This document shows, piece by piece, positions 5,698 through 46,356 of a DNA stretch of 64,000 bases. Origin of the DNA: an uncultured Candidatus Saccharibacteria bacterium. Its GTDB lineage: Bacteria; Patescibacteriota; Minisyncoccia; Phycocordibacterales; CAIZLB01. The stretch covers positions 20,728 through 84,727 of the forward strand of contig CAZFOD010000003.1 of NCBI GenBank assembly GCA_964520545.1, written 5' to 3'. Numbering within the stretch: position 1 is the stretch's first letter; each line of letters begins with the position of its first letter. The position numbers and the translations under genes are program-made. The notes under the pieces were generated by a model. It was given only the letters and a program-made list of their open reading frames with translations, was not told the origin of the DNA and did not search any database.

Positions 5698-5701
5698 TAC
5701 C

Positions 5702-6322: not shown

Positions 6323-6344
6323 CCACTAGATTGTTGAATAATAT

Positions 6345-17650: not shown

Positions 17651-17710
17651 AAAGAGCGTCTTTTTCCAAGCACCTTCAGGGGTTGCGAAGAGAAAGACGC
17701 TTTTTTATTT
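17651..17710. terminator. Bidirectional terminator between convergent genes
   Basis: AGCGTCTTT...AAAGACGCT hairpin flanked by A-run upstream and TTTTTTATTT downstream. Confidence 0.5.
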
Positions 17711-24288: not shown

Positions 24289-24332
24289 AAGCAGCCCCTC
24301 CGGGAAGACCGGGCGGGCTGTTTTGTATTTTT
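24289..24332 (+). repeat. Terminator-containing direct repeat, copy 1
   Basis: AAGCAGCCCCTCCGGGAAGACCGGGCGGGCTGTTTTGTATTTTT; near-identical copy at 26992-27034 (one C fewer). Confidence 0.8.
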
Positions 24333-24423
24333 AAACTCCTCTTTGGAAAAGTATGAAGAAACAAATAATCGCCGATGGAGGAATTCCTCCATCGGCGATG
24401 TTCTATTTTATCGAGTTTGTGAT

Positions 24424-25356: not shown

Positions 25357-25659
25357 GGTTTCTCCTTTTGTGGATTGTTTTTGATGTGATGTGCTTTCCT
25401 TCCTCCGAATTTCTTCAGTGGTAACCCGGGTGAAGTAGACACTTTTTTACAATATTTGTCAAAGAATACAGTACTAGCATCCTTGACTTCCATAACGACT
25501 ATCGTGTAAGTTTCTTCCAGATATAACAGTTCATCGAAAACCTGCTATCTGGATTCTACCCCTCAGACGGGAAATCTTGTCTTGCTTGTGTTGCCGGCTA
25601 TTATGCTTGGCCTCGTAAGATCAATTCGATATGTCCAAAAACCTCAATCCTGAAATCCT

Positions 25660-29934: not shown

Positions 29935-32790
29935 ATGAAATCTAAAAAAGAAACACAATACGATCATATAAAGATCGAGAAGAAATGGCAGAAAGTTTGG
30001 GAAACAAAGAAGCCATACAAGGCTTCTGATACGAGTAAGGCAAAGAAATTCTATCCTCTTGTAGAATTCCCATTCCCTTCTGGAGCAGGACTCCATACCG
30101 GACACATTCGCAGTTATGCTGCGATGGATATTGTTGCACGTAAACGTCGTATGATGGGAGAAAATGTGTTGTATCCAATCGGATGGGATGCCTTTGGTCT
30201 TCCTACTGAAAACTTTGCGATAAAGACAGGTAAACAGCCTAAGCTTGTAACAAAGGAAAATACGGACAACTTCCGCCGGCAATTAAAGATGCTTGGTCTT
30301 TCATTTGATTGGTCTCGAGAAATCAATACAACAGATCCTGAGTACTATAAATGGACCCAGTGGATATTCATACAGATGTTTAGGAAAGGACTGGCGTACA
30401 AGGCTCGTACGGCAGTAAATTGGTGTCCAAAAGACAAGACAGTGCTTGCAAACGAAGAAGTCATAAATGGGGCGTGTGAACGTTGTGGTACAAACGTTGA
30501 GAAGAGAGAAAAGGAACAGTGGATGCTTGCCATTACAAAGTATGCAGATCGTCTCGACAAAGATCTCGACACTGTCGACTATCTAGAACGTATAAAGATA
30601 CAGCAGCGTAATTGGATTGGTAGAAGTACTGGGTCAGAATTGGATTTCTCAATTGTTGGATCAAAGGAGAGTGTGAAGGTATTCACGACACGAGCGGATA
30701 CGCTCTTTGGTGTGACCTATGTTGTCCTCGCACCAGAACATGCTCTCGTTGAACAGCTTTTAGATAAGGTTTCTAACAAAGCTGAAGTAGTGAAATATAT
30801 TACTGCAGCTAAAGCTCGAGCAGATATTGATAGGACTGCGGAAGGAAAGGAAAAAACAGGAGTTGAACTTAAAGGCGTAAAGGCAGTTAACCCTGCAAAT
30901 GGTGAGGAGGTTCCTGTTTGGATTGCTGACTATGTCCTCGCAACATATGGAACGGGTGCTGTCATGGCGGTTCCTGCACATGATCAAAGAGATCTTGAGT
31001 TTGCTCAGAAATATAATCTTCCAGTAAAAAATGTTGTCATTCCGTCTGTCGTTGACCATGTAAATCCTCCACGTGCTGATAAGGGAACCAAGGTAAGAAA
31101 GAATGTACACGCCATAGTTTTTGATCCTAAGACGAAGAAATACCTCATCATCCGTAACAAGAAGTTCGGATGGGACACTGTTGTCATCGGAGGAATTGAA
31201 GAAGGAGAAGAACCGGTTGATTCAGCACTCCGAGAGTTAGCCGAAGAGACTGGCTACACTGATGTGGAATATAAAAGAACACTTGGTGGACCTGTTCAGG
31301 CTGCATATTTTGCAAAACATAAAGACGAAAACCGTGTAGCTTTTGCTACAGGTGTATATTTTGAATTGAAGAGTGATAAGCGATTAGAGATTGATCAAGG
31401 CGGTGAAAACGAGGGAAATGAAATCCTTTGGGTAGACGGAGCTGAATTTGTCCCTGGAAAGATGGTTAACTCTGAACTTCCATATTGGCTTGAAAGACTT
31501 ACGGCACAAAAAGATATTGCGTATGAAGGGAAGGGAATCCTTGCCGAATCTGGATCATTTGATGGAATGGATTCTGATTCAGCAAAGGTGAAGATTACAA
31601 AGCTTGTGCATGGAAAAGAGGTAACAAAATACAAGTTGAGAGACTGGGTTTTTTCTCGACAACGATATTGGGGAGAACCAATCCCTGTTGTTAATTGTGC
31701 AGCATGCGGATTAGTGGCGCTTCCTGACAAGGAACTTCCTCTTAAATTACCTGAGATAAAGAAATATGAACCTACAGATACCGGTGAATCACCACTTGCA
31801 ACGATAGAGAAGTGGGTAAAGACTAAATGCCCTAATTGTAAGGGTCCAGCAAAGCGCGAAACTGACACTATGCCTCAGTGGGCTGGATCTAGTTGGTACT
31901 ATTTGCGATATGCAGATCCAAAGAACAAGAAAGCACTTATAGATCCAAAGAAACTTAATATCTGGCAGCCTGTTGATTGGTACAACGGGGGTATGGAACA
32001 CACTACTCTTCATTTGTTGTACTCTCGATTCTGGCATAAATTCCTTTTTGACATTGGAGTGGTAAAAACAATTGAACCGTATGCTAAGCGTACCTCTCAC
32101 GGCCTCATTTTGGCCGAAGGCGGAGCGAAAATGTCGAAGTCGAAGGGAAACGTGGTTAACCCCGACGACCTCGTTAAACTCTACGGTGCGGACACATTGC
32201 GTCTTTATGAAATGTTCATGGGTCCATTTGATCAGGCAATACCATGGAGTAGTGACAATATGATCGGACCTCGAAGATTCATTGAAAGAACATGGAATCT
32301 TGCAAAGAAGGTTAAGAAAGCTGATGCCGACAAGGAGGTTGATGCACTGGTTCATAAGACTATTAAAAAAGTGAGTGGGGATATAGAGGGTATGGGCTTC
32401 AATACCGCAGTATCATCACTTATGATTCTCCTCAATGCGTTTGAGAAACAGACTGTAGTATCAAAGGACCATTACAAGATATTCCTTCAGCTCCTTGCTC
32501 CTTTCGTGCCTCATGTTGCTGAAGAATTATGGGCAGAGCAGGGAAACAAGAAGAGTATTCATCAGTCTCCGTGGCCAGAATTTGACCCAAAGAAGCTTAT
32601 TTCCGATTCCTTTAATATTGTTGTCCAAGTTAACGGAAAGGTACGAACTACCTTTGTTTCTGACAGTAATGACGAGGAGACTGTTAAGAAATATGCCCTT
32701 GAACACCCTGTGGTCATCAAATGGCTGGAGGGTAAGACCCCAATTAAGGTCATTTATATCCCAGACAAGCTTGTGAATATCGTCATTTAG
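29935..32790 (+). CDS. leuS: Leucine--tRNA ligase with an inserted Nudix hydrolase domain
   Basis: Class I HTGH (HIGH) and KMSKS motifs; CP1 editing signatures TTRADTLFGVTYVVLAPEH and GTGAVMAVPAHDQRD; extra ~160 aa (res ~368-525) with perfect Nudix box GGIEEGEEPVDSALRELAEETGY. Confidence 0.9.
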   Translation: MKSKKETQYDHIKIEKKWQKVWETKKPYKASDTSKAKKFYPLVEFPFPSGAGLHTGHIRSYAAMDIVARKRRMMGENVLYPIGWDAFGLPTENFAIKTGKQPKLVTKENTDNFRRQLKMLGLSFDWSREINTTDPEYYKWTQWIFIQMFRKGLAYKARTAVNWCPKDKTVLANEEVINGACERCGTNVEKREKEQWMLAITKYADRLDKDLDTVDYLERIKIQQRNWIGRSTGSELDFSIVGSKESVKVFTTRADTLFGVTYVVLAPEHALVEQLLDKVSNKAEVVKYITAAKARADIDRTAEGKEKTGVELKGVKAVNPANGEEVPVWIADYVLATYGTGAVMAVPAHDQRDLEFAQKYNLPVKNVVIPSVVDHVNPPRADKGTKVRKNVHAIVFDPKTKKYLIIRNKKFGWDTVVIGGIEEGEEPVDSALRELAEETGYTDVEYKRTLGGPVQAAYFAKHKDENRVAFATGVYFELKSDKRLEIDQGGENEGNEILWVDGAEFVPGKMVNSELPYWLERLTAQKDIAYEGKGILAESGSFDGMDSDSAKVKITKLVHGKEVTKYKLRDWVFSRQRYWGEPIPVVNCAACGLVALPDKELPLKLPEIKKYEPTDTGESPLATIEKWVKTKCPNCKGPAKRETDTMPQWAGSSWYYLRYADPKNKKALIDPKKLNIWQPVDWYNGGMEHTTLHLLYSRFWHKFLFDIGVVKTIEPYAKRTSHGLILAEGGAKMSKSKGNVVNPDDLVKLYGADTLRLYEMFMGPFDQAIPWSSDNMIGPRRFIERTWNLAKKVKKADADKEVDALVHKTIKKVSGDIEGMGFNTAVSSLMILLNAFEKQTVVSKDHYKIFLQLLAPFVPHVAEELWAEQGNKKSIHQSPWPEFDPKKLISDSFNIVVQVNGKVRTTFVSDSNDEETVKKYALEHPVVIKWLEGKTPIKVIYIPDKLVNIVI

Positions 32791-33964: not shown

Positions 33965-35212
33965 ATGTCAGGTAATGAAGCTCTTCAGCAAATCTTTGGA
34001 CCTCTCTTTGGAATAATCATCCAGATTGTAGTCTTTGTCTCATTCATCATTGTCCCTATATTTCTCATGATTTGGTTTTGGAAGAACTGGGTGAAATATG
34101 TTCGTGCTGTATTCTTCGCTTCTCAAAAGTATGTAGTGTTGGAGCTTAAGATTCCAAAAGGAATTGCCAAGAGTCCACTTGCTATGGAGCTCTTTATGAC
34201 CTCACTTTTCCAAACTGGAGGTGAGGGTACTCCGTTTGATAAGTTCTGGTTGGGGAAGACTCGTCCGTGGTTTTCGCTTGAGATTGCATCAATTGAAGGA
34301 CAGGTACGCTTTTTCATCTGGACCCGAGAGGCATTCAAGGGACTCGTTGAAAGCCAACTCTATGGTCAGTTTCCTGATATTGAAATGAATACTGTTGAGG
34401 ACTATAGCTCGAAAATAAACTTTAACTGGGCTGATCACCAAATGTGGGCGTGTGATTTTAAGAAAGGACAAGCATCACATCTCCCGATAAAAACATATAT
34501 AAATTATGGTCTTGATAAGGATCCGAAGGAAGAGGTAAAGATCGATCCAATAACATCAATCATCGAATTTCTTGGCTCCGTTGGCCGAGGTGAACAAATC
34601 TGGATGCAAATTGTCATCAGAGCTCATAAAAAGGAATTAACTAAACCAGGAACATGGTTTGAAAAAGTAGACTGGACCGATGCTGCAAAAAAGGATGTTG
34701 ATAAAATTATGAAGCGTGATAAGAAGGCTAAAGATGGAGAAGTGAACTTTGCTGATTTTTCAATGACAAAGGGTGAGCGTGAAAAAGTAGAAGCAATTGA
34801 AAAGAATGTTTCAAAGCTTGCCTTTGATTGCGGTATTAGAGCTATATACGTCGCTAGGAAAGATAGTTTCAAGCCCGCAATGATTCCAGGCCTTACTGGA
34901 AGCCTCCGTCAGTACAATGCTCCTAACCTAAACGGCTTCGCTCCAGCTAACGGTACTGCCTACGACTATCCATGGCAGGACTTTACTGGAGTAAGGACAA
35001 TGAAAAAGAAAGAAAAGATGATGTTCCTTTATAGGAATCGATCTTTCTTCTACCCAGAATTCTTTCCAGATGGATATGAATATGAAGCTTTTGTCATGAC
35101 GACAGAGGAACTCGCCACCATATATCACTTCCCAGGTGATGTTTCTCGAACCCCTAACCTTAGTCGAATTTCTGCAAAGAGAGCAGAAGCTCCATCAAAT
35201 CTTCCGATTTAA
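33965..35212 (+). CDS. Hypothetical membrane protein
   Basis: N-terminal TM helix, large soluble domain; no recognised family. Confidence 0.45.
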   Translation: MSGNEALQQIFGPLFGIIIQIVVFVSFIIVPIFLMIWFWKNWVKYVRAVFFASQKYVVLELKIPKGIAKSPLAMELFMTSLFQTGGEGTPFDKFWLGKTRPWFSLEIASIEGQVRFFIWTREAFKGLVESQLYGQFPDIEMNTVEDYSSKINFNWADHQMWACDFKKGQASHLPIKTYINYGLDKDPKEEVKIDPITSIIEFLGSVGRGEQIWMQIVIRAHKKELTKPGTWFEKVDWTDAAKKDVDKIMKRDKKAKDGEVNFADFSMTKGEREKVEAIEKNVSKLAFDCGIRAIYVARKDSFKPAMIPGLTGSLRQYNAPNLNGFAPANGTAYDYPWQDFTGVRTMKKKEKMMFLYRNRSFFYPEFFPDGYEYEAFVMTTEELATIYHFPGDVSRTPNLSRISAKRAEAPSNLPI

Positions 35213-35215: not shown

Positions 35216-36181
35216 ATGTCATCACTCGGCAAATCATTGCGATTCGGGATATTGGGTGGACTCTTGGCTTTTTCAGTCATCATTGCCTTCTATCAATTCG
35301 TCCTGTCAGCTCCTTCTAATTTTGTTTCCGGTACATCCATTGTCATAGATCCAGGACAAAGTATTTCGAGTATCACTAATGAGTTGCACATGAACAATAT
35401 TGTTCGATCTCCTCTATTATTCAGAAGCCTTGTCATTTTCTACGGAGGCGAGCGGCGTACATCTGCTGGTATGTATCTCTTCAATGGGCCTCAAGATGTG
35501 TTCCATATAGCTCACCGTATTTCAAATGGTGACTATGGTTATGTACCCGTTAAATTAACTTTGCCTGAAGGGTTAACGTCAGCAGAAACAGCAAAGCTTG
35601 TTCATGACAAGTTTCCGCAAATTAATGAGAAAGATGCTGAGATTGCTTTTAGGCCGTATGAAGGAAAGCTTTTCCCAGAAACATATTTCTTTTCACCACA
35701 GGCACCTCTTCAAATGATTTTAGATAGGTTACTGGCGCAGTTTGATAAGAGCATTGGGAGTAGAACAAAAGCCATTGAGGATTCAGGTCGTTCACTTGAC
35801 GAAATATTGATACTCGCCTCCATTCTTGAGGAGGAAGTGCAGAATGACATTGATCGTCGCATAGTTGCGGGTCTCATTTTACGTCGATTAGAAATTGACA
35901 TGCCGCTTCAGGTTGATAGCACATTGGGGTATGTTACGGGCAAAGCATCTCTTCAGCTTACTCTAAAAGACCTACAGCTTGATTCGCCATACAATACATA
36001 TAAGTACAAAGGGTTGCCTCCTACTCCAATTTCTAATCCGGGCCTTTCATCGATAGATGCGGCACTTAATCCGACTCCTAGTAAGTACCTCTATTTTCTT
36101 TCTGATAAAGATGGTATAAATCATTTCGCCGTAACCTACGGTGAACATGTTAAAAATCGTAAAAAATACCTCGGGAAATAA
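35216..36181 (+). CDS. mltG: Endolytic murein transglycosylase MltG (second paralog)
   Basis: DSPYNTYKYKGLPPTPISNPG and C-terminal HFAVTYGEHVKN motifs. Confidence 0.75.
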   Translation: MSSLGKSLRFGILGGLLAFSVIIAFYQFVLSAPSNFVSGTSIVIDPGQSISSITNELHMNNIVRSPLLFRSLVIFYGGERRTSAGMYLFNGPQDVFHIAHRISNGDYGYVPVKLTLPEGLTSAETAKLVHDKFPQINEKDAEIAFRPYEGKLFPETYFFSPQAPLQMILDRLLAQFDKSIGSRTKAIEDSGRSLDEILILASILEEEVQNDIDRRIVAGLILRRLEIDMPLQVDSTLGYVTGKASLQLTLKDLQLDSPYNTYKYKGLPPTPISNPGLSSIDAALNPTPSKYLYFLSDKDGINHFAVTYGEHVKNRKKYLGK

Positions 36182-37247
36182 GAAGGTCTGGGTTGGTATG
36201 TCTGGTGGTGTAGATTCTTCTGTATCAGCCTTGCTTTTGAAGCAGGCGGGTTTCGACGTGACAGGTGTGTTCATTAAAGTGTGGCAGCCTGAGAATGGAG
36301 AGTGTACATGGAAAGATGAGCGACGGGATGCAATGAGGGTTGCGGCTCATCTGGATATTCCATTTCTTACATTTGATTTTGGAGATGAATACAAAAAAGA
36401 AGTTGTTGATTACATGATCCGAGAATACAAGCAGGGTAGAACTCCAAACCCTGATGTTATGTGCAACCGATTCATTAAGTTCGGCTCTTTCCTTAAGGCT
36501 GCAAGGGAAGCTGGTGTTGACTATGTTGCAACGGGTCATTACGCACAAAATATTTTAAATATTAAGACTGGAAATTTTGAACTTAAAGAAGGAGCTGACA
36601 AGAATAAAGATCAAACATATTTTCTTTGGACATTAAATCAGTCCGACCTGCAACACATATTGTTCCCTGTTGGACACTTGCAGAAGAGAGAGGTACGAAA
36701 GATTGCAGAAAAGAATAGCTTACCAATATTCGACAAGAAGGATAGTCAGGGTATCTGCTTCATTGGACATGTCGACATGAAAGAATTCCTGAAGGAACAT
36801 ATTGATACACAAAAAGGGAATGTCATTGATATGAAAGGTGAAATAATCGGTGAACACGACGGTGCCCTCCTGTATACCATCGGAGAACGCCATGGTTTTA
36901 CTTTGTACAATTCGTCGCCTGACGAACACCCAAAGTATGTAATCACTAAGGATGTATCGAAGAATACAATCACGGTGGCGGAATATACCGAGGAAGTAGT
37001 CTCTCATATGGCTAAAACAGCCCTAGCGAGCTCTGTAAGTGCTACAAGTGGTGAAATGGACTCACTCATTGGTACTTTTGACGTAAGGCTTAGATATAGG
37101 CAAGAGAAGCAGAGATGCAATATCAAGAAGGGTAAGGAAGGTACCCTAGAGATCACATTTGATCCTCCTCAGAAAACGGTAACTTCTGGCCAGTCTATTG
37201 TCATTTATGATGGCGAAGTCTGTAGGGGCGGTGGTATACTGGTTTAA
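36141..37247 (+). CDS. mnmA: tRNA-specific 2-thiouridylase MnmA
   Basis: PP-loop KVWVGMSGGVDSSVSA; conserved Cys pattern; 368 aa. Confidence 0.85.
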   Translation: MNMLKIVKNTSGNKKVWVGMSGGVDSSVSALLLKQAGFDVTGVFIKVWQPENGECTWKDERRDAMRVAAHLDIPFLTFDFGDEYKKEVVDYMIREYKQGRTPNPDVMCNRFIKFGSFLKAAREAGVDYVATGHYAQNILNIKTGNFELKEGADKNKDQTYFLWTLNQSDLQHILFPVGHLQKREVRKIAEKNSLPIFDKKDSQGICFIGHVDMKEFLKEHIDTQKGNVIDMKGEIIGEHDGALLYTIGERHGFTLYNSSPDEHPKYVITKDVSKNTITVAEYTEEVVSHMAKTALASSVSATSGEMDSLIGTFDVRLRYRQEKQRCNIKKGKEGTLEITFDPPQKTVTSGQSIVIYDGEVCRGGGILV

Positions 37248-37268: not shown

Positions 37269-38129
37269 ATGTCAAAACCGCAGAGTACTATATATGTAAT
37301 TAAAGAGGATGGCAAAAAGGAGGAATTTCTTCCCGAAAAACTACAAACATCTCTCATTAATACGGGAGCGAATCCAACAACCGCTGAAAAGATTGTGCGA
37401 GGAATTGTCGAATCAATGGCAAAAGATTCCATCATCGAAAAAACTACAAGTGACATATACAGAGAGGCTTTCCATCAACTTAAGGAAATGTCACATGCAG
37501 CTGCTGCGCGATACTCTCTCCGTCGTTCCCTCATGGAATTTGGTCCAACAGGTTTTCCATTTGAAGCCTACATTGCAGAGATATTCAAAAAACTGGGTTA
37601 CGAAACAATGATTGATCAAGTCGTATTTGGTAGCTGTGTTCCACATGAGGTGGATGTTGTTGCTTGGAATGACAACAAGCTTCTCATGGCTGAAGTAAAA
37701 TATCACAATGAGCCAGCGGGAAAGACAGACCTTAAAGTAGCTTTGTATGTAAAAGCTCGGTACGACGATCTCAAACAGAATTCATACGAATATGGTCAAA
37801 GTCGAAAGCTTGATGAGGGCTGGCTCATAACTAATACAAAATTTACTGATACTGCGATCACGTACGCAAATTGTTCCGGTGTCAAAATGCTTGGATGGGA
37901 CTACCCAGAAACAGGAAGCCTTAGAGAAATGATTGAAGAAACTAAGCTTCACCCCATCACATGTCTCACAACAATGAGTGCCTCTCAAAAGACTCATTTG
38001 ATGAACAAAAAGATCGTGCTTTGTAGATCTGTTTATGACAACAAGGAACTTCTAAAGGAAGCTGGCCTATCAGATCTTGAGATATTAAAAGTCATGGAGG
38101 AGATAAGTGATATATTTAAAAACGATTAA
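37269..38129 (+). CDS. ATP-cone domain fused to Mrr-like restriction-endonuclease (PD-(D/E)xK) domain
   Basis: N-terminal YVIKEDGKKEEFLPEKLQTSL (ATP-cone); FEAYIAEIFKKLGYET...EVDVVAW...LMAEVKY (Mrr_cat-like D...EVK). Confidence 0.5.
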   Translation: MSKPQSTIYVIKEDGKKEEFLPEKLQTSLINTGANPTTAEKIVRGIVESMAKDSIIEKTTSDIYREAFHQLKEMSHAAAARYSLRRSLMEFGPTGFPFEAYIAEIFKKLGYETMIDQVVFGSCVPHEVDVVAWNDNKLLMAEVKYHNEPAGKTDLKVALYVKARYDDLKQNSYEYGQSRKLDEGWLITNTKFTDTAITYANCSGVKMLGWDYPETGSLREMIEETKLHPITCLTTMSASQKTHLMNKKIVLCRSVYDNKELLKEAGLSDLEILKVMEEISDIFKND

Positions 38130-38138
38130 TAAATACAA

Positions 38139-38909
38139 ATGTCTGAATACTACAACCCAAACAGAGGTGCTGCATGGAACTACGGTGGCAAAGACTGGAA
38201 ACTTAGTCGTTCAAAGATTGATCTCTTCATGGAGTGCCCTCGTTGTTTCTATCTCGACAACAAGCTTGGGGTAAAGAGGGTTCCTGGATTTCCTTTTGCA
38301 TTAAACAGTGCTGTAGACTTTTTACTTAAACAAGAATTTGATGGTCACCGAATTAAAGGTGAACAGCATCCATTGCAAACTGAATACGGTATAGATGCAA
38401 GACCTGTAGAGCATAAAGAGCTTGATGAGTGGCGTCGAAACTTTGGGGGTATAACATACAAACATAAACCAACAGGACTCCTCATCTCAGGAGCAATTGA
38501 TGATCTATGGATAAATAGTAAAGATGAATATATTGTTGTTGATTACAAAGCAACCGCTAAGGAAGAGCCTGTAAAAGCACTTGATATGGATTGGCATGAT
38601 GGATATAAGCGTCAGATGGAGGTATATCAATGGCTTTTGACTCAGAATGGTTTGAAAGTTTCAAACACAGGATATTTTGTGTACTGCACTGGGAGAATGG
38701 ATCGGAAGTCGTTTGATAAGAAGATTGAGTTTGATATTTGTCTCATTCCATACAAAGGAACAACAGACTGGGTTGAACCGACATTACTTAAAATAAAAGA
38801 ATGTTTGGAATCGAATGATATTCCTACTGAAGGATCATCTTGTGACTATTGCGCATACCGAACTGCTGCAGGCAATGCTTTTAAAAAGCATATGACTAAG
38901 AAGAAGTAA
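38139..38909 (+). CDS. Cas4/RecB-like PD-(D/E)xK nuclease with putative Fe-S cluster Cys (CxxC...CxxC)
   Basis: Motifs GAIDDL, IVVDYK, QMEVY (QhxxY); Cys pairs CPRC (N-term) and CDYC (C-term). Confidence 0.55.
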   Translation: MSEYYNPNRGAAWNYGGKDWKLSRSKIDLFMECPRCFYLDNKLGVKRVPGFPFALNSAVDFLLKQEFDGHRIKGEQHPLQTEYGIDARPVEHKELDEWRRNFGGITYKHKPTGLLISGAIDDLWINSKDEYIVVDYKATAKEEPVKALDMDWHDGYKRQMEVYQWLLTQNGLKVSNTGYFVYCTGRMDRKSFDKKIEFDICLIPYKGTTDWVEPTLLKIKECLESNDIPTEGSSCDYCAYRTAAGNAFKKHMTKKK

Positions 38910-38910
38910 T

Positions 38911-39537
38911 ATGGATAGACCAGTACTCAACATTGAATATTGTCATGTGACCTTAGGGCAGGATTACAACGAACAGGTAAAGATTTCGAACGAAGTCGTT
39001 GGCAAGGTGGTAGAGGTATATAAAGATATTTACGATATTTCCCCGTATCTCATGATTGATGATCTCCGCTCGAAGGAAACAGTTACTGATGAATATATTA
39101 AAAATCTGATAGATTCTCTGACAATAAAGCCTGCGGCTATTTACCTCGAATCTTCATTTATTCCTCTTGCTGAAGATATTCTCTCAATTTTTGAAGGTAG
39201 TAATCATCACCTGGTGACAACAGAAGAGGAAAGGTGGCTACATCAAATTAAAGATACATACGGATCATCAACAGATTTCTTACTTTCATGGAAAGGCAAG
39301 GATGCTGAGCACGCAGTAAATTTTTCTTGTTCAACACTCGTTTCCGCGTCATATCTTTTTCGATTGGGTAGCGTGAATAATATTGATGTCAAACCGATAT
39401 ATGGAGAGATGAAACCTGCTCAAAAACTTCTCAATATATTGCCTTCAATTTACATGCAGACCGAGGCCAATGCTCAGACGATAATAGAAGCCTACAAGCC
39501 AGGAGCGTCAAAAGATATTATCACCCTTTTCTATTAA
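38911..39537 (+). CDS. Hypothetical protein
   Basis: 208-aa ORF tightly packed between Cas4-like and UDG genes. Confidence 0.45.
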   Translation: MDRPVLNIEYCHVTLGQDYNEQVKISNEVVGKVVEVYKDIYDISPYLMIDDLRSKETVTDEYIKNLIDSLTIKPAAIYLESSFIPLAEDILSIFEGSNHHLVTTEEERWLHQIKDTYGSSTDFLLSWKGKDAEHAVNFSCSTLVSASYLFRLGSVNNIDVKPIYGEMKPAQKLLNILPSIYMQTEANAQTIIEAYKPGASKDIITLFY

Positions 39538-39539
39538 CT

Positions 39540-40148
39540 ATGGGAATTAAGTTACTAGAGCGCCAAGATGCAATCTCAAAGCTAACAAAAGAGCTTCTTG
39601 CAATGAAGGGTGCTCTAGCAGACGAACGACGTAAAAATAAAGTAAATCCTGTTGTTGGAGAGGGAAGTCTCACCGCTGACATCGTGTTTGTAGGTGAAGC
39701 TCCTGGAAAGAATGAAGCCTTAAAGGGTAAACCATTTTGTGGGGCATCAGGAAAGTTTCTTGATGTAATGTTGGATTCAATAGGTTTACTTAGATCACAT
39801 GTATATATTACAAACTTGGTAAATGATCGCCCGACAGATAACAGAGATCCTTCACCTCAAGAAATTGAGTCATATGCTCCTTTTCTTGAAAGACAACTGG
39901 AAATAATTAAACCAAAGGTTATTGCTACACTCGGGCGTATCCCTATGGCATACATCATGAAAAGATTTGGTCTAGAGCATGAGCTTAGTGTAATCTCAAA
40001 AATTCATGGTAAGACTTTTAAAGTAAAAGCACCTTGGGGTGGAAATATTACAATTATTCCCCTCTATCACCCTGCTTCTGCACTGTATAACGGAAGCAAT
40101 CGAGCTACACTTCTTGAGGATTTTAAGGTGTTGAAGGCTGTGATATAG
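39540..40148 (+). CDS. Uracil-DNA glycosylase, family 4
   Basis: VFVGEAPGKNEALKGKPFCGASGKFLD family-4 signature. Confidence 0.75.
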   Translation: MGIKLLERQDAISKLTKELLAMKGALADERRKNKVNPVVGEGSLTADIVFVGEAPGKNEALKGKPFCGASGKFLDVMLDSIGLLRSHVYITNLVNDRPTDNRDPSPQEIESYAPFLERQLEIIKPKVIATLGRIPMAYIMKRFGLEHELSVISKIHGKTFKVKAPWGGNITIIPLYHPASALYNGSNRATLLEDFKVLKAVI

Positions 40149-41947
40149 TGCTGCATATGAAAAAAACAGCTTCGACGTATAAGACTGAATGGGACTTTTC
40201 TGAAATTTACTCTGGATTGAACGACAAAAACCTGGAGGCGGATGTTGCGGCTATTGAAAAAGCACACACTCTTTTTGCTAAGAAGTATTCTAAGAGGGAA
40301 GATTATCTTACAGATGAAAATAAGCTGAGTATTGCTCTCAAGGATTACGAGAAGCTCCTCGAACAAATTGGTTCAACCAAGCCTCTTTGGTACCTGTACA
40401 ACATGCAGGCTATTGATAGTCAAAATCAAACTATTACTGCGTTACTCGGAAAATTTGAACCCCGCATCACTAAGGCTGGAAACCTTACATTGTTTTTTAC
40501 TTTGAAGCTAGGAAAGATTGATCGAAAGCTTCAATCGACATTTCTAAAAAGCCCGTTATTAAAACATTATAGGTATTTCCTTAAGCAGATATTTGAGACA
40601 TCGAAATATGACTTATCTGAACCTGAAGAGAAAATATTGAGTCTCAAGTCAAGAACAGCTAGAGATATGTGGTCTGAAAGTTTTAGTAAGCTTCTTGCTA
40701 AACAGACAGTAAGGCATGCTGGAAAAGATGTACCCATGGGGAGCGCCCTGAATTTGATTCAGCAACTTCCGTTAAAAGAAAGACACGAGCTACACACTGC
40801 ATGTATGAAGGTGCTCAAGGATATTTCATATTTTGCTGAGAGTGAGATTAACGCCATATATAGTGACAAGAAAGTTAATGATGAACTCCGAGGTTTCAAG
40901 GAGCCATACAGCGCTACAATTCTTGGATATCAAAATGAAGAGAAAAGCGTTATGGCACTGGTGGATGCTGTTACAGAAGGTTTTTCTATAAGCAATCGAT
41001 TCTATAAACTAAAAGCTAAGTTGCTTGGTTTAAAGAGTCTTAGATATGCGGACCGTGGAGTTGGTATTGGTCAAAACGTCAAGGAAATAAAGTTCGATCA
41101 GTGTTTGGACATCGTAAGAGAAGGGTTCCGAGATGTAAAAAAGGAATATTCAGATCAGTTGGACTATATGCTTCAGACGGGGAAAATTGATGTGTACAGC
41201 AAAAAAGGAAAACAAGGAGGAGCATATTGTTGGGGAGGTAGCGGAGTTCCAACAGTGGTATTTTTAAATTATGTACCGAGTTTAGATGCCGTCATGACAC
41301 TTGCTCATGAAATGGGCCATGCGATTCATTCAGAGCTATCAAAGAAGCCCTCTATAATATACCAACACTACACTATATCTGTGGCAGAAGTCGCCAGTAC
41401 CTTCTTTGAAAATCTTGCTTTTGAAAAGGTTTTTGCAACACTCACTCCTCAGGAACAGATTGTTGCACTTCACGATCGTATACAAGATTACATCTCCACT
41501 GTATTTCGACAGATAGCATGTTTTAACTTTGAACTCGATATTCATAGAATGATAAGAGAAAAAGGTGCAGTAACTGAAAAGGAACTATGCAAATTGCATA
41601 ATAAACATATGTCCGCATATATTGGACCTATAGCAAAGCTAAACGAAGATGACGGATACTTCTTCACCGCATGGAGCCATATCAGAAGGTTTTTCTACGT
41701 ATATTCATATGCTTATGGAGCTTTAATTAGCCGAGCACTATATACAAAGTACGTAGAAGATAACTCATACATTGAAAAAGTAAATTCATTTATGGAAGCA
41801 GGATGTACTATGAGTCCCGAAGATATCTTTAAATCAGTCGGAATAGATACCTCAAAGCCAGAATTCTTCAAGGAGGGGCTTAAGAGCATCGAGGCAGATA
41901 TCATACGCCTGGAGAAGCTTGCAAAAGCAGCAAAGATGATTAAGTAA
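40148..41947 (+). CDS. pepF: Oligoendopeptidase F (M3B metallopeptidase)
   Basis: HEMGHAIHSE zinc-binding HExxH motif, ~600 aa. Confidence 0.75.
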   Translation: MLHMKKTASTYKTEWDFSEIYSGLNDKNLEADVAAIEKAHTLFAKKYSKREDYLTDENKLSIALKDYEKLLEQIGSTKPLWYLYNMQAIDSQNQTITALLGKFEPRITKAGNLTLFFTLKLGKIDRKLQSTFLKSPLLKHYRYFLKQIFETSKYDLSEPEEKILSLKSRTARDMWSESFSKLLAKQTVRHAGKDVPMGSALNLIQQLPLKERHELHTACMKVLKDISYFAESEINAIYSDKKVNDELRGFKEPYSATILGYQNEEKSVMALVDAVTEGFSISNRFYKLKAKLLGLKSLRYADRGVGIGQNVKEIKFDQCLDIVREGFRDVKKEYSDQLDYMLQTGKIDVYSKKGKQGGAYCWGGSGVPTVVFLNYVPSLDAVMTLAHEMGHAIHSELSKKPSIIYQHYTISVAEVASTFFENLAFEKVFATLTPQEQIVALHDRIQDYISTVFRQIACFNFELDIHRMIREKGAVTEKELCKLHNKHMSAYIGPIAKLNEDDGYFFTAWSHIRRFFYVYSYAYGALISRALYTKYVEDNSYIEKVNSFMEAGCTMSPEDIFKSVGIDTSKPEFFKEGLKSIEADIIRLEKLAKAAKMIK

Positions 41948-42007: not shown

Positions 42008-43849
42008 ATGAAATCCTCTGATATCCGTCAGCGATTCCTTACCTTCTTTGAGAAGCGAGGGCACGCAATCATTCCATCAGCCTCACTTGTACCGGAAAAT
42101 GACCCTACCGTGCTTTTTAATACCGCAGGCATGCAACCTTTGGTCCCTTACCTATTAGGTGAGAAGCATCCTCAGGGAACTCGATTGGCTAACATACAGA
42201 AATGTCTGAGAACAAACGATATTGAGGATATTGGAGACAATACACATGCTACTTTCTTTGAAATGATGGGTAACTGGTCTCTTGGTGACTATTTCAAGAA
42301 AGAAGCTATTGAATGGAGCTATGAATTGCTCACAAGTAAGGAAGAAGGATTTGGACTTGATCCAAACCGGCTATACATCTCATGCTTTGAGGGCGACGCG
42401 GCCAACAATATCCCAAAAGATGACGAAGCCGCTGATATTTGGAAGAGTCTCTTTGAGAAGAATGGAATAAAGGGAGAAAGGGTATATTTCCTTGGAGCAG
42501 ATGCAAACTGGTGGCCAGCAGTTAAAAAGGCTACTGATACTTGGACAGGACCGACCGGACCTTGTGCTGAAATGTTTTACGATGTTACAGGTACCTTAAA
42601 TCAAGGAATGACAAGAGAGGAGTACCTCGCTGCAGATGAAGCGCAGAAGGTTGTTGAAATTGGAAACGATGTATTCATGGCGTACAGAAAGGAAAATGGA
42701 AAGATTGTCGGACAACTTGAAAAGAAGAATGTAGATGACGGGCGTGGATTTGAGAGACTTGTGATGGTAATTCAAGGTAAAGACAACATATTCGATACAG
42801 ATATCTTTGAAGCTGTTATGGGTAAGATGGATGAGTTCATTTCTGATGAAACTCTAAAAGCAAATCCTGCAGAAGTTAAAAGGCTTAAGCGAATCATTGC
42901 AGACCACACTCGTACATCAGTTATGCTCATTTCAGACGGTGTTTTGCCCTCTAATACCGACCAGGGATATATCCTACGGCGTTTAATCCGTCGAGCAGTG
43001 CGTTTTGCTGACAAACTTGGCATGAAGCACGGCTCACTCTTCTGGATCGCTGATGTAATAGCTGATTCATACAAGGACGTATACAAAAACATTGCTCAGC
43101 AAAAGGAAACAATCAAGATTTCAATAGACAAGGAGGAAGAAAAATTTAGAAATACCTTAAAACAAGGGTTAAAAGAGTTCGAAAAGTCATTGGAACGAGA
43201 AGGAGGCTCAAAACTAACAGGCAAAGACGCATTCGTTCTCTTCTCTACATATGGTTTTCCAATTGAAATGACCGAGGAGATGTGTAAAGAACGAGGTGTA
43301 AATCTAGACACCGTGGAGTTTAACGATGAAATGAAAAAGCATCAAGAGTTGTCTCGTTCAGGCGCTGAACAAAAGTTTAAAGGAGGACTTGGCGACACAA
43401 GTGATCAGTCGGTTAAATATCACACCGCAACACACTTACTTCATCAGGCACTTCGTGAAGTTCTTGGTGAGCACGTTATGCAGAAGGGAAGCAATATTAC
43501 ACCAGAAAGACTTCGATTTGATTTTGCGCATACTGCAAAGATGACCGATGAAGAGAAGAAGCGAGTTGAAGATATTGTAAATGAAAAGATTCAGGCATCA
43601 CTCCCTGTGCAGGTAGTTAGCCTTTCAAGGGAAGAAGCTGAAAAAACCGGAGCTTTACACTTCTTTGGTGAAAAGTACGCAGATACTGTTACTGTGTATT
43701 ACATAGGCGATACGATTGATGCAGCTTTCTCAAAAGAATTCTGCGGTGGGCCTCATGTAAAGAATACATCAGAACTTGGACATTTTAAGATACAGAAAGA
43801 AGAAGCGGTTGCACAAGGTGTAAGACGTATCAAAGCTATTCTCGAATAA
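42008..43849 (+). CDS. alaS: Alanine--tRNA ligase, short form (catalytic + editing domains, no C-Ala domain)
   Basis: N-term FLTFFEKRGH...NTAGMQPLVPY...QKCLRTNDIEDIGD...HATFFEMMGNWSLGDYFK; editing HTATHLLHQALR and CGGPHV; only 613 aa. Confidence 0.85.
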   Translation: MKSSDIRQRFLTFFEKRGHAIIPSASLVPENDPTVLFNTAGMQPLVPYLLGEKHPQGTRLANIQKCLRTNDIEDIGDNTHATFFEMMGNWSLGDYFKKEAIEWSYELLTSKEEGFGLDPNRLYISCFEGDAANNIPKDDEAADIWKSLFEKNGIKGERVYFLGADANWWPAVKKATDTWTGPTGPCAEMFYDVTGTLNQGMTREEYLAADEAQKVVEIGNDVFMAYRKENGKIVGQLEKKNVDDGRGFERLVMVIQGKDNIFDTDIFEAVMGKMDEFISDETLKANPAEVKRLKRIIADHTRTSVMLISDGVLPSNTDQGYILRRLIRRAVRFADKLGMKHGSLFWIADVIADSYKDVYKNIAQQKETIKISIDKEEEKFRNTLKQGLKEFEKSLEREGGSKLTGKDAFVLFSTYGFPIEMTEEMCKERGVNLDTVEFNDEMKKHQELSRSGAEQKFKGGLGDTSDQSVKYHTATHLLHQALREVLGEHVMQKGSNITPERLRFDFAHTAKMTDEEKKRVEDIVNEKIQASLPVQVVSLSREEAEKTGALHFFGEKYADTVTVYYIGDTIDAAFSKEFCGGPHVKNTSELGHFKIQKEEAVAQGVRRIKAILE

Positions 43850-43871: not shown

Positions 43872-45035
43872 TTGCGGTACAATTACTACATGAGCAAGCA
43901 TGTTTCTCTTATTTGTTATATCGGCAACGGCATCGTAAAAGGATCTGTTGTACTGAATGAAAAGAATAAGCTGCCTGTAATCCTAGCTACCAGAGTTCGA
44001 GAGCTTCCATACCAAGAGTTTGTCGATAGACAACACCTCGAGTCTCGCGTCATGAGTGAGTTTACTAGCCTTATCACTGATATCAAATTCAAGGATTTAG
44101 CTGGAGCAAAATTCCGTGATGCATGCGTCATTCTTTCCTCACCATGGTATGTGTCTGAAACAAAGACGGTTAAGATAGAACACGAAAAACCTTTTGAAAT
44201 AACAGAAAAGATTCTTAATGATGCAGTTGCTTCTGCAGCTTTGGAATACTCCCAGAAACCTAAAGAGGGAATTACAATTCTTGAAAAGAATGTAAGTAAA
44301 TACTTTCTCAATGGATATCCGACAAATGTCCCCCTTAAAAAGACTGCTCAGCATGTAGAGATGTCTGTTTTCTTAAGCTTTTGCCAAACAAAAACGGTTG
44401 ATCTCATTAAACAAACCATACTGTCACACCTTAATATCCACGATACACAAATTCATTCTCAGTCACTTGCTGCTTTTGCAGCGGTTCAAGAGACTTGGAA
44501 AGACCTTGCAAACTACGTTTTAACTGACATTAGCTCTCAATTGACTGAGTTAATGATTGTACGGCAGGAAACTCTAGCTGAAGCAGCATCTTTCCCATTT
44601 GGAAAACAATATGTTTTAAAGGAACTTGGTTCAATTTTCAATACAAGTGGGGATGTTTCGCGCTCTCTTCTTGAGATGTATCACAAAGGTACAATAGAAG
44701 CCTCTTTAAAATCAAAGGTGGAGGAAGCAATTGCTATGGTAAAAAAGGAATGGCTTAAACCTTTCACAAATGCACTCTCTGAAATGTCCGCGGGATCTTC
44801 ACTACCAAGTCGCTTTATACTCTTTGCTCCAAAAGATGCTGAGTGGCTTTTCGCAGACTTTATTAAATCAGAAGAATATCAACAATTTACTTTTTCAGAA
44901 GGGAAGTTTGAAGTCTACGAAGCAAAAGTTTCTGACTTTGAACATCTATATGCACTTGCAGCAGGTGTCACACCTGACATTTCGTTAGCGGTGGGGGCAA
45001 TCTTCTTTCATAAAAAAATGAAAGGTGTAATATAA
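43872..45035 (+). CDS. Hypothetical protein, possibly actin-like ATPase fold (FtsA/PilM-like)
   Basis: N-terminal SLICYIGNGIVKGSVV weakly resembles phosphate-1 motif; low certainty. Confidence 0.3.
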   Translation: MRYNYYMSKHVSLICYIGNGIVKGSVVLNEKNKLPVILATRVRELPYQEFVDRQHLESRVMSEFTSLITDIKFKDLAGAKFRDACVILSSPWYVSETKTVKIEHEKPFEITEKILNDAVASAALEYSQKPKEGITILEKNVSKYFLNGYPTNVPLKKTAQHVEMSVFLSFCQTKTVDLIKQTILSHLNIHDTQIHSQSLAAFAAVQETWKDLANYVLTDISSQLTELMIVRQETLAEAASFPFGKQYVLKELGSIFNTSGDVSRSLLEMYHKGTIEASLKSKVEEAIAMVKKEWLKPFTNALSEMSAGSSLPSRFILFAPKDAEWLFADFIKSEEYQQFTFSEGKFEVYEAKVSDFEHLYALAAGVTPDISLAVGAIFFHKKMKGVI

Positions 45036-45042: not shown

Positions 45043-46356
45043 ATGGTTGAAAAAAATACAAACGAAGAAGGTACGGGTGCTGAAAAGAAATCTATTCGGA
45101 ATATTCCTCTCACCAAAAAACAAACTCGAGAGCTCGAGAAAATAGAAGAGGCATTGCATGAGGGTGTTGTTCCACCATCTCCAGTTATGCCAGCGGCACC
45201 AACAAGAAGAACTACTGTAAGAAGAACTCCTCCTCGTATTGTAAATATGGATACATCAACTGTAAGCGCACGGAAGCGTAGCCCTTTGCGATGGATAGTG
45301 GTGGTACTTGTCGGTATTGTTCTTGTCTACGGAATAGGTCACATGTTTAAGAAAGCCACAGTTTCAATTACTCATTCAGAAGAAGTTGTGACACTTTCAA
45401 ACTCTGAGTTTGCTCTTATGCCTGCAACTACTACAATTGCAGGAATTCCAGCTGGAACCATTGTGTACCAAAAGAAAGCTTTCGACGTCTCAGCAACAAC
45501 TACAGTTGCAGCAACTGGTGTTCAGCAGGTTCAGAATAAGGCGAGTGGAAAACTTGTCGTATATAACGACTCAGCATCATCTCAACTCCTTGTTGCAACT
45601 ACGAGATTCCAAACCCCAGAAGGTTTAATATTCAGACTCAATAAAACAGTAACTGTATCTGCAAAGACAAATGTAACCGTTGATGTAACAGCTGATCAGG
45701 CGGGGGAAAAATACAACATTGGACCAAAAACTTTTACTCTTCCTGGTCTTCAAGGAACAGCAAAGGCTAAAACAATATATGCAAAATCAGCCGCTTCTAT
45801 GACCGGTGGATCTATTGGAACAGTAGCTCAGACTTCAGCCGATGAACTTTCAGCCTCAAAGGGTGCAATTCATGACAGCATCGAACGTACCGCTCTAGAA
45901 AAGGCTACATCTCAAGTTCCTGAGGGTTATGTACTCCTCAAGGGAGGTATGACGGTTGAATTCGGAGACCTTAAGCAGGTATATGATCAAACAACTAAGA
46001 CAGCAACGCTCTCACAGACTGCTCTTGCCACGATTTACTATCTCGAGAAGTTAAGCCTAACAGATGCAATAGCTAAGAAAAGTAGCGCTTTTTCAGCCTC
46101 TAAGGCTATGGTGAGTACGGAGTCTCTTTCCGCTGAAATTAAGACTCCGGTCCTATTAAATATCTCAGGTACCTCAACTGTCAGGGCTGATTTTGATGAG
46201 AATGGCTTAACCATGGAGCTTGCGGGTAAAACCCGATCTGAAGCTCTCTCTGTCGTAAAGGGGATTACGGGCGTTAATGCAGTCGAAGTATCCCTCAGAC
46301 CATGGTGGGAAAGGAGACTACCCGAGGCCGGCTCAATTGAGGTTAAAATCGATTAA
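45043..46356 (+). CDS. Membrane-anchored hypothetical protein with large Thr/Ser-rich ectodomain
   Basis: Basic cytoplasmic N-term, single TM (WIVVVLVGIVLVYG). Confidence 0.45.
   Translation: MVEKNTNEEGTGAEKKSIRNIPLTKKQTRELEKIEEALHEGVVPPSPVMPAAPTRRTTVRRTPPRIVNMDTSTVSARKRSPLRWIVVVLVGIVLVYGIGHMFKKATVSITHSEEVVTLSNSEFALMPATTTIAGIPAGTIVYQKKAFDVSATTTVAATGVQQVQNKASGKLVVYNDSASSQLLVATTRFQTPEGLIFRLNKTVTVSAKTNVTVDVTADQAGEKYNIGPKTFTLPGLQGTAKAKTIYAKSAASMTGGSIGTVAQTSADELSASKGAIHDSIERTALEKATSQVPEGYVLLKGGMTVEFGDLKQVYDQTTKTATLSQTALATIYYLEKLSLTDAIAKKSSAFSASKAMVSTESLSAEIKTPVLLNISGTSTVRADFDENGLTMELAGKTRSEALSVVKGITGVNAVEVSLRPWWERRLPEAGSIEVKID

Follow-up and report, generated by a model that had tools for sequence, protein, structure and literature searches.

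Gene content and packing

Do five closely packed genes in this genome make up a DNA-targeting operon for defence or DNA uptake, as an initial annotation proposed, or do they belong to something larger? The window, that is, the entire 64-kb stretch of DNA that was analysed, carries all five as confirmed open reading frames, bounded by two genes that serve as anchors below:

G1, 37269-38129, + strand: 286 aa in three domains, an ATP-cone, an AF1548/Mrr-type PD-(D/E)xK nuclease and a C-terminal helix-hairpin-helix-like domain
G2, 38139-38909, + strand: 256 aa, stand-alone RecB/Cas4-like PD-(D/E)xK nuclease with a putative Fe-S site
G3, 38911-39537, + strand: 208-aa lineage-restricted orphan
G4, 39540-40148, + strand: 202 aa, family-4 uracil-DNA glycosylase (UDG)
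G5, 40148-41947, + strand: M3-family oligoendopeptidase, PepF-like, 599 aa with GTG 40148 as start codon and 596 aa with ATG 40157
mnmA, 36141-37247, + strand: tRNA 2-thiouridylase (Pfam), upstream anchor of the conserved row and near-constant neighbour of G1
alaS, 42008-43849, + strand: alanyl-tRNA synthetase, AlaRS (Pfam), downstream anchor of the variable slot

Our analysis makes it rather probable that G1-G5 are a stretch of a long, vertically inherited housekeeping row in a tiny genome of Parcubacteria-type Patescibacteria (CPR), not a dedicated module, with G1 as a putative nucleotide-gated nuclease tied to nucleic-acid turnover.

The tight packing that suggested an operon is real, with successive gaps from G1 to G5 of 9, 1, 2, and -1 nt, although in an independent gene prediction G5 begins at ATG 40157, which leaves an 8-nt gap between G4 and G5 instead of the 1-nt overlap. 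This spacing is near the genome background: same-strand neighbours in the window are separated by a median of 23 nt, gaps of 10 nt or less account for 16 of 51, and the coding fraction is 91%. The co-directional + strand run begins at 28930 and ends near 51031, covering some 23 genes and reaching far past G1-G5, and a search at the proposed G1-G5 boundaries found no promoter or terminator signals. The five genes are probably co-transcribed, within a much longer polycistronic row. The rest of the window consists of housekeeping genes.

Conserved order and a variable slot

What relatives conserve is not G1-G5 but a housekeeping block of some 12 genes in collinear order. The order LeuRS-sigma-DUF8128-MltG-MnmA-G1, followed by a variable interval and then AlaRS-hyp387-hyp437, is collinear in 82 relative loci, in which G1 identity is 43-62%. 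MnmA lies upstream of G1 in 50 of the 53 relatives with enough sequence, and AlaRS lies downstream in 40, at a distance of 590-7,090 nt. Forty loci show the G1-AlaRS interval in full: 29 of them have UDG, 22 have G2, 12 have PepF, and none has G3, while 14 hold nothing more than G1-UDG-AlaRS. Other occupants of the slot include MgtC, PCMT, an MGMT DNA-binding domain (six loci), M3 and M16 peptidases, NUDIX, an HD 5'-deoxynucleotidase, and ABC-F. G2, UDG, and PepF are gained and lost independently of one another.

The proposed pairing of G1 with G2 is not borne out by these loci. G2 follows G1 directly in 30 of 65 CPR loci, UDG often takes that place, and the closest G3-bearing relative (L094) reads G1-G3-UDG-PepF, without G2; the adjacency of G1 and G2, on which the initial annotation let its interpretation depend, is not specifically conserved. 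The divergence of G1 follows that of sigma, MnmA, DUF8128, and MltG (rho 0.46-0.57, p ≤ 0.003) and is uncorrelated with that of G2 (rho 0.01). Because the entire region is collinear, synteny alone is compatible with a loose functional link between G1 and G2, which may exist within CPR. A five-gene functional module is rejected, since the spacing is the genome norm, a larger block is what is conserved, and G2, UDG, and PepF vary independently, with L094 keeping G3 while lacking G2.

Anatomy of the ATP-cone nuclease

The fusion of an ATP-cone to an Mrr_cat-like nuclease domain in G1 holds up against both Pfam profiles. The ATP-cone (PF03477, 33.1 bits, cutoff 25.8) spans residues 8-87 and covers profile positions 1-84 of 88; it is a four-helix bundle with a beta-hairpin cap that superposes on known cones, with NrdR repressors as its nearest structural matches. 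The nuclease core, at approximately residues 95-207, belongs by sequence and structure to the Mrr_cat/AF1548-type PD-(D/E)xK family (Mrr_cat PF04471, 28.7 bits, cutoff 21; AF1548-like_C, 23.4 bits, just under the cutoff of 23.9; PDB 1y88, E 2.5e-29), and a helix-hairpin-helix-like (HhH) domain follows at about 229-282. No homolog departs from the catalytic residues D129, E142, and K144, whether among 43 or among 240 compared, and H126, E127, and H146 are likewise invariant among the 240. Across phyla the family retains 51 near-invariant positions.

In canonical ATP-cones, such as those of RNR, a Lys-Arg pair contacts the nucleotide. K12 of G1 is invariant, and the adjacent canonical Arg position is occupied by E, A, or S in 120 CPR members and by A in 120 non-CPR members. 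As the canonical Lys-Arg is Lys-Glu/Ala in G1, its putative nucleotide binding could differ from that of RNR and NrdR. Homologs fill more than 3,253 clusters on the CPR side and more than 7,522 on the Bacteroidota side, all with identical architecture. G1 represents a widespread family, and it is the sole unusual member of the five-gene row.

The genes that follow G1

G2 scores 51.3 bits on PDDEXK_1 (PF12705, cutoff 22), and the motifs that had marked it as Cas4/RecB-like (GAIDDL, IVVDYK, QMEVY, and CPRC...CDYC) are all found and conserved: D121, D122, D135, Y136, K137, Q159, and Y163, together with C33, C36, C222, C235, and C238, are kept in at least 90% of 41 orthologs. The putative Fe-S pattern is of the 1+3 type (C33 plus C222, C235, and C238), with C36 in addition. 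Every Cas4 model scores below its cutoff (TIGR00372, 28.4 bits against 65; PF01930, 18.2 bits against 22.7), and the window contains no CRISPR array, as already noted in the initial annotation, no repeats, and no cas gene such as cas1 or cas2. The assignment of G2 as Cas4 proper is rejected on these grounds. Its family comprises 1,883 representative clusters, mostly of stand-alone proteins of about 250 aa.

G3 gave no match above threshold in domain searches; its N-terminal ~95 residues possibly adopt a Rossmann/HUP-like alpha/beta fold. It is confined to the closest relatives, in one of which (L092) the homolog is located elsewhere, beside RecA and FtsK.

The family-4 assignment of G4 stands (UDG_fam4 TIGR00758, 186.3 bits, cutoff 125.3; PDB 4zbx, E 3e-43). 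All 38 orthologs carry motif A, GEAPG, and the combination of motif A with motif B (HPA/S) that marks family 4 is found. PMC5295032, citing Hinks et al. 2002, describes family-4 UDGs as carrying a [4Fe-4S] cluster held by four Cys ligands. In the alignment with 4zbx these ligands (CxxC, C, C) correspond to M22, A25, D96, and Y112, and all four are likewise replaced in 38 of 38 orthologs; G4, without any of the four Cys ligands, is filed as a predicted cluster-free variant of family 4.

For G5, membership of the M3 family is upheld (Peptidase_M3, 124.7 bits; Peptidase_M3_N, 40.6 bits), whereas the name PepF in its strict sense is not, as the protein falls below both the subfamily and the equivalog cutoffs (TIGR02290 M3_fam_3, 393.7 against 561.7 bits; pepF TIGR00181, 278.3 against 490.55 bits). 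By these scores it is an M3-family oligopeptidase but no strict PepF equivalog.

G1 neighbours outside Patescibacteria

Ten independent contexts of G1 homologs from other phyla (identity 38-42%) were compared. Five of them carry a beta-CASP/RMMBL nuclease gene on the same strand no more than 5 kb away, and in four it is directly adjacent. In three, the G1 homolog is followed by a ribose-phosphate diphosphokinase and by an archaeal-type phosphorylase near AMP phosphorylase, which reaches 480-507 bits on the AMP-phosphorylase model, below its cutoff of 535. A P-type ATPase occurs nearby in five, and PPK2, Usp, PFK, and GAPDH-like genes recur. The contexts are heterogeneous: the beta-CASP gene is missing from half of them, and many represent metal-homeostasis islands. 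In none of the ten is the G1 homolog adjoined by a G2-like PDDEXK_1 gene, a UDG, a PepF, or a defence gene, and in the Patescibacteria loci no beta-CASP nuclease, phosphorylase, or PRPP synthase adjoins G1. A role of G1 in salvage or turnover is an extrapolation from other phyla, because such partners do not adjoin it in Patescibacteria.

Proposed role and alternatives

In the reading we prefer, G1 is a fixed core gene behind mnmA, and the G1-alaS interval is a slot in which cell-maintenance genes vary by lineage, each most likely with its own separate job: DNA-end processing or repair for G2, base-excision repair for G4, and peptide turnover for G5. Adenine nucleotides (ATP versus dATP/ADP) would switch the nuclease activity or oligomeric state of G1, on the pattern of RNR and NrdR. 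Such gating would couple nucleic-acid cleavage to the state of the nucleotide or energy pool and serve nucleic-acid turnover and nucleotide salvage in an organism that must scavenge nucleotides. The analysis itself establishes gene models, domains, catalytic residues, synteny, and independent gain and loss, whereas gating, substrate, and physiological role are inferred. We hold more tentatively, at less than an even chance, that G1 is the first nuclease class under ATP-cone allosteric control, with the ATP/dATP or ATP/ADP state switching cleavage of DNA or RNA. If so, organisms unable to make nucleotides would have their nucleic-acid turnover and nucleotide scavenging gated by G1; elsewhere it would gate RNA/DNA catabolism linked to stress, together with a beta-CASP nuclease, PRPP synthase, and an AMP-phosphorylase-like enzyme. 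Parcubacteria-type Patescibacteria would then have it as a vertically inherited core enzyme, and in Bacteroidota and other phyla it would form a very large family.

A DNA-repair cluster, in which G1 would be a (d)ATP-gated structure-specific endonuclease of flaps, forks, or junctions working alongside G2 and UDG in small-genome repair, is unlikely in our judgement. The HhH tail and the repair-type CPR neighbours (UDG, MGMT, G2) suit a DNA-repair nuclease equally well. The order of nuclease and HhH domains resembles XPF/Mus81/Hef-type enzymes, the CPR slot is rich in repair genes, and the RecB-type motifs and Fe-S Cys pattern of G2 are intact. Yet the slot also carries genes unconnected with DNA (PepF, PCMT, M16 peptidase, MgtC, ABC-F), G1 and G2 are uncoupled in both presence and divergence, and outside CPR the homologs adjoin beta-CASP RNase, nucleotide-catabolic, and ion-pump genes, never repair genes. 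We consider it quite improbable that G1 is a nucleotide-responsive DNA binder with NrdR-like logic, its ATP-cone controlling binding through the nuclease fold and HhH domain and so regulating variable downstream genes. The structural closeness of its cone to NrdR agrees with this, as do the non-CPR clusters, in which the homolog is typically the first gene of a co-directional set with varying downstream content (beta-CASP set or P-type ATPase) and often overlaps the next gene stop to start. In CPR, however, G1 sits mid-row and not at an operon head. Nuclease folds that are inactivated and reused for binding usually lose their catalytic residues, whereas the six invariant residues of G1 are those expected of an active enzyme.

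Very improbable, finally, is the defence module, in which G1, as a restriction-like or abortive-infection effector, would detect ATP/dATP shifts caused by phage through its ATP-cone, and G2 would process invader DNA as a Cas4-like partner. PADLOC does return weak matches, a single generic Mrr-domain match for G1 (ZorD Mrr-like domain, 22 bits) and Cas4 models for G2, and the G1-AlaRS interval is a variable slot. Against this, neither the window nor some 90 related or homologous loci contained a methyltransferase, restriction-modification, CRISPR, or defence gene, so that the expected defence-island context is missing in relatives. Searches for phage homologs of G1 and an IMG/VR profile scan both gave 0 matches, and 72,556 plasmids yielded two full-length ones. 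A literature search found no link between the ATP-cone and defence. G2 is dispensable and uncoupled from G1, and its Cas4 scores are all sub-cutoff, whereas G1 keeps a fixed position, diverges with housekeeping genes, and preserves its near-invariant positions. It is a core gene, neither mobile nor defence-like; its placement in a restriction-modification or defence system is rejected for want of partners and viral homologs and in view of its fixed position and vertical divergence.

Comparison with known systems

Like nucleases of the Cas4, AddB, and RecB family, G2 carries the RecB motifs (D, DxK, QxxxY), and its cysteines are arranged 1+3 as is typical of the 'iron staple' of Cas4 and AddB. 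It differs from Cas4 in its scores, its setting without cas genes or array, and its extra conserved C36, and belongs to a separate stand-alone nuclease family. Ligand-gated PD-(D/E)xK effectors such as NucC, Cap4, and the CARF nucleases Can2/Card1 differ from G1 in their sensor, which in G1 is an ATP-cone and not CARF or SAVED; G1 also has no cyclase, CRISPR, or CBASS partner and behaves as a core rather than a defence-island gene.

The CPR nucleoside salvage pathway (AMP phosphorylase-RuBisCO, pentose-bisphosphate) is described in PMC5113843. Non-CPR G1 homologs head clusters with the beta-CASP nuclease, the archaeal-type phosphorylase just below its cutoff, and ribose-phosphate diphosphokinase, but R15P isomerase and RuBisCO were not seen in those clusters, and none of these partner genes adjoins G1 in CPR loci. 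AF1548 of Archaeoglobus fulgidus (PDB 1y88; PF04471 and PF22357, AF1548-like_C) has only about 22 residues before its core and no ATP-cone, unlike G1; because it is itself only a predicted restriction endonuclease, the match informs the fold and chemistry of G1 and not its function. From the ATP-cones of NrdR and RNR (PF03477) the G1 family is set apart by the replaced Arg beside the first Lys and by its output, which is a nuclease in place of a Zn-ribbon repressor or an RNR catalytic subunit.

Gene models and packing of the five-gene segment

The segment that the initial annotation described as a tightly packed operon comprises five open reading frames (ORFs) on the plus strand at 37269-41947, all of which are recovered at these positions with successive gaps of 9, 1, 2 and -1 nt. 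An independent gene caller (identical metagenome contigs) places the start of the last gene at ATG 40157, which leaves an 8-nt gap to the gene before it. Domain searches uphold the gene descriptions.

Genes of the segment, with the start of G5 as placed by the independent caller
37269-38129, plus strand: G1, ATP-cone/Mrr-like nuclease (ATP-cone, Mrr_cat and AF1548-like_C profile scores)
38139-38909, plus strand: G2, Cas4/RecB-like nuclease (PDDEXK_1)
38911-39537, plus strand: G3, 208-aa protein without significant match
39540-40148, plus strand: G4, family-4 uracil-DNA glycosylase (UDG; TIGR00758)
40157-41947, plus strand: G5, PepF-like M3 oligoendopeptidase

While the small gaps are real, the packing is only marginally special against the rest of the window, where same-strand gaps have a median of 23 nt and 16 of 51 measure 10 nt or less, coding density is ~91%, and 56 of 64 ORFs lie on the plus strand. 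G1-G5 sit inside a co-directional run of ~23 genes extending from 28930 to ~51031. Promoter- and terminator-like matches in the window occur at a frequency no higher than in shuffled sequence, and neither 37269 nor 41947 is marked as a boundary by one. Given the length of the run and the lack of a boundary signal at either position, G1-G5 are probably co-transcribed as a segment of a much longer row.

The remaining genes of the window are ordinary Patescibacteria (CPR) housekeeping genes, encoding tRNA synthetases, a sigma factor, MnmA, YchF, IF-1, ribosomal proteins, the DnaK/DnaJ/GrpE chaperones, glycosyltransferases, histidine kinases and two MltG/YceG-family paralogs (35216-36181, plus strand; 17705-18559, minus strand) within 64 kb of a small genome. 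No CRISPR array, restriction-modification (RM) system or recognisable defence gene is present in the 64-kb window. The LeuRS gene (29935-32790) carries a NUDIX domain inserted directly after the CP1 editing domain (residues 388-511, ~nt 31096-31467; PF00293, 45.7 bits, cutoff 21.1), and the same match is found in the orthologs of loci L001 and L094. A GC-rich island at 4306-7639 (52-55% GC vs ~41% elsewhere) encodes large and small subunits of the aconitase family and an isocitrate/isopropylmalate dehydrogenase, a LeuCD/LeuB-like or homoaconitase-type trio; such biosynthetic genes are unusual in a streamlined genome, and lateral acquisition may explain them. A second GC-rich stretch (24193-26859, 49-53% GC) holds two ORFs of ~400 aa, one without a Pfam match and the other with only a sub-threshold xylose-isomerase-like TIM-barrel match, as well as a 24-nt imperfect tandem duplication at 25290-25333.

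A collinear block with a variable slot in relatives

The window proteins were compared with two genome loci, retrieved with a single-sequence query, and 80 metagenome loci from a profile scan of metagenome contigs, whose G1 homologs share 43-62% identity with the window protein. The order LeuRS, sigma factor, DUF8128, MltG, MnmA, G1, a variable slot, AlaRS, hyp387 and hyp437 is collinear across all 82 loci, and MnmA precedes G1 in 50 of the 53 with enough upstream sequence. A functional link between MnmA and G1 was considered and rejected, as their adjacency is limited to this collinear CPR block and absent elsewhere. The poorly characterised DUF8128 (33965-35212), always after the sigma factor, and the equally obscure hyp387-hyp437 pair (43872-45035 and 45043-46356), which comes after AlaRS, are syntenically kept like the housekeeping genes around them in ~80 relatives; hyp437 has a weak Baseplate_J-like match (24.6 bits).

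The slot between G1 and AlaRS spans 590-7,090 nt in the 40 loci where it is fully seen. It contains the UDG in 29 of these, G2 in 22, PepF in 12 and G3 in none, with the UDG as sole occupant in 14. Another 107 slot ORFs include MgtC, PCMT, an MGMT DNA-binding domain, M3 and M16 peptidases and NUDIX; HD 5'-deoxynucleotidase, DUF7282 and an ABC-F ATPase are also among the slot families. None of the 107 is a defence gene; maintenance genes are found instead. The closest G3-bearing relative, L094 (G1 69% identical), has the order MnmA-G1-G3-UDG-PepF, without G2, and the G3 homologs of two genomes further away have an ECF sigma factor, RecA and FtsK as neighbours.

Vertical co-inheritance predicts that G1 diverges in step with its housekeeping neighbours, and G1 divergence indeed correlates with that of the sigma factor, MnmA, DUF8128 and MltG (Spearman 0.46-0.57, p<=0.003). 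G2 divergence is uncorrelated with that of G1 (rho 0.01). G1 is a vertically inherited core gene of the lineage, neither physically nor evolutionarily coupled to G2.

Properties of G2, G3, G4 and G5

G2, a Cas4/RecB-like nuclease, matches PDDEXK_1 at 51.3 bits, and every Cas4 model scores under its cutoff. The nuclease motifs proposed earlier (D121/D122, D135-Y-K137 and Q159...Y163) and cysteines C33, C36, C222, C235 and C238 are conserved in at least 90% of 41 orthologs. The cysteines follow the 1+3 pattern of Cas4/AddB, but with one additional Cys. The best reading of G2 is that of a RecB/Cas4-type nuclease that works independently in end processing or repair. Its sole plasmid homolog (47% identity; L095 5965-6969, Flagellatimonas centrodinii plasmid NZ_CP092105) lies in a run of small hypothetical genes, together with genes for a nucleotide-kinase-domain protein and for a large helicase-related protein; the region resembles a replication/recombination module of a phage-like or mobile kind.

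G3 has no significant match in any profile or database search and no more than a weak HUP/Rossmann-like fold signal; 5.8 billion protein clusters contain just three homologs. G4 is confirmed as a family-4 UDG (TIGR00758, 186 bits, cutoff 125) that lacks all four [4Fe-4S] cysteine ligands, the CxxC, C and C of the Sulfolobus tokodaii enzyme (4zbx) being replaced by M22, A25, D96 and Y112. Patescibacteria orthologs (L004-L085) have L/P/D/Y at these positions in 38 of 38 cases; D96 and Y112 never vary, and GEAPG is kept. Since published accounts treat the [4Fe-4S] cluster as a hallmark of family-4 UDG and its ligands are replaced here, the Patescibacteria enzymes look, by sequence, like a natural lineage-wide cluster-free clade. 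G4 is best read as a base-excision glycosylase. G5 clearly contains the Pfam M3 domains, falls under the strict pepF equivalog cutoff, and is best read as a peptide-turnover enzyme.

G1 is an intact nuclease with an ATP-cone

Profile calls support the proposed fusion of an ATP-cone (33.1 bits, cutoff 25.8) to an Mrr-type nuclease (Mrr_cat, 28.7 bits, cutoff 21), with AF1548-like_C just under its cutoff (23.4 bits, cutoff 23.9). Residues 101-280 match the structure of AF1548 from Archaeoglobus fulgidus (PDB 1y88, E 2.5e-29). Every one of 240 homologs, drawn from Patescibacteria and other phyla, retains catalytic D129/E142/K144 together with H126/E127/H146, and the two groups have 51 near-invariant positions in common. 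G1 combines an intact nuclease, an ATP-cone and a DNA-binding tail. Canonical ATP-cones, such as those of ribonucleotide reductases (RNR), have an Arg directly after the first Lys; G1 homologs have E, A or S there, so that the predicted nucleotide binding of G1 may be atypical. C123, C202 and C232, the last of them not conserved in AF1548, are at least 95% conserved across the 240 CPR and non-CPR homologs; they may form a metal-binding or redox site within the nuclease and HhH region.

The family is very large: searches gave more than 3,253 clusters for the window protein and more than 7,522 for a Pontibacter homolog, all of the same architecture. Annotations are limited to 'ATP cone domain-containing protein', 'ATPase' or 'restriction endonuclease'. 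Our literature search found no experimental work on G1 and nothing linking an ATP-cone to nuclease, restriction or defence; for AF1548 and G1-type proteins it returned only the 2007 GOS paper, which predicted AF1548 to be a restriction endonuclease with catalytic D38/E51/K53. The G1 family is catalogued in Pfam and NCBI and functionally unstudied.

G1 homologs outside Patescibacteria

No G1 homolog was found in 50,697 phage genomes or by a profile scan of IMG/VR. Two of 72,556 plasmids gave full-length matches, from Criblamydia (Chlamydiota) and Pontibacter (Bacteroidota), and both carry a same-strand, tightly packed cluster of the G1 homolog, a beta-CASP/RMMBL nuclease, an archaeal-type phosphorylase and a ribose-phosphate diphosphokinase. 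The phosphorylase passes the TIGR02645 cutoff, and its scores on the AMP-phosphorylase model (cutoff 535) are 480-507 bits. The recurrent non-CPR order places the ATP-cone nuclease at the head, followed by the beta-CASP/RMMBL nuclease, the AMP-phosphorylase-like phosphorylase and then the diphosphokinase; our search found no published description of an ATP-cone/MBL/thymidine-phosphorylase cluster.

Loci of the recurrent G1-homolog cluster
L086, 5995-10602
L087, 1972-6597
L096, 5001-9666
L090, 3632-5886
L100, 5001-10445

The non-CPR sample comprises 10 independent contexts out of more than 7,500 homologs, with L096 and L097 counted once because their G1 homologs are 95% identical. A beta-CASP nuclease lies within 5 kb of the G1 homolog in 5 of the 10 (directly adjacent in 4). 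The phosphorylase and PRPP-synthase pair is present in 3, and a P-type cation ATPase is nearby in 5 (directly downstream in 3). PPK2, Usp, PFK, GAPDH-like, 2-hydroxyacid dehydrogenase and metal-homeostasis genes also recur, and none of the 10 contexts has a G2-like nuclease, UDG, PepF or defence gene nearby. These heterogeneous contexts point towards nucleic-acid and nucleotide catabolism and towards energy or ion stress, not immunity.

Discussion

The five-gene set is not specifically conserved, though the larger block is, which is the outcome that the initial annotation itself named as speaking against a five-gene module. An obligate G1-G2 pair is rejected by the slot counts, the L094 order, the uncorrelated divergence and the absence of co-occurrence in all 10 non-CPR contexts. 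All five genes fall into known families, and the 'operon' does not amount to a new system; G1-G5 are probably a housekeeping mosaic, not a defence or uptake module. This negative result is useful in that it shows how streamlined Patescibacteria genomes, through close gene spacing and collinearity across a lineage, can give the false impression of an operon. The remaining value lies in G1, which is part of the core gene set in much of Patescibacteria and is present in thousands of other bacteria.

ATP-cones are the allosteric switches of RNR and NrdR. By analogy, adenine nucleotides bound in the G1 cone would switch nuclease activity or oligomerisation, and cleavage would depend on the nucleotide or energy state. 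The substrate would be DNA, which the HhH tail favours, or RNA. In nucleotide-scavenging Patescibacteria, gated cleavage could then feed nucleic-acid turnover and salvage; CPR nucleoside salvage is described in PMC5113843. This specific role of G1, as a gated nuclease in turnover, is our tentative proposal, at somewhat less than even odds. If true, it would be a new use of the ATP-cone domain and would connect nucleic-acid degradation directly to the sensing of the nucleotide pool, which is relevant to the handling of scavenged DNA and RNA by nucleotide-auxotrophic epibionts.

Other roles can be envisaged for G1. The HhH domain and the CPR neighbours fit a structure-specific repair nuclease acting with G2 and UDG, but the non-CPR contexts and the independent gain and loss of these genes do not, and we consider such a cluster unlikely. 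That G1 homologs head variable clusters outside CPR would suit an NrdR-like regulator, an improbable assignment in that the invariant catalytic set argues for an enzyme. Least credible is the defence or restriction module initially suggested: PADLOC, CRISPR, RM-partner, phage, viral and plasmid homolog and defence-island searches (~90 loci) were all negative or generic, and the position, conservation, distribution and context of G1 are contrary to it. What speaks for that module is the layout of G1 itself, in which a sensor is joined to a nuclease as in Can2 and NucC.
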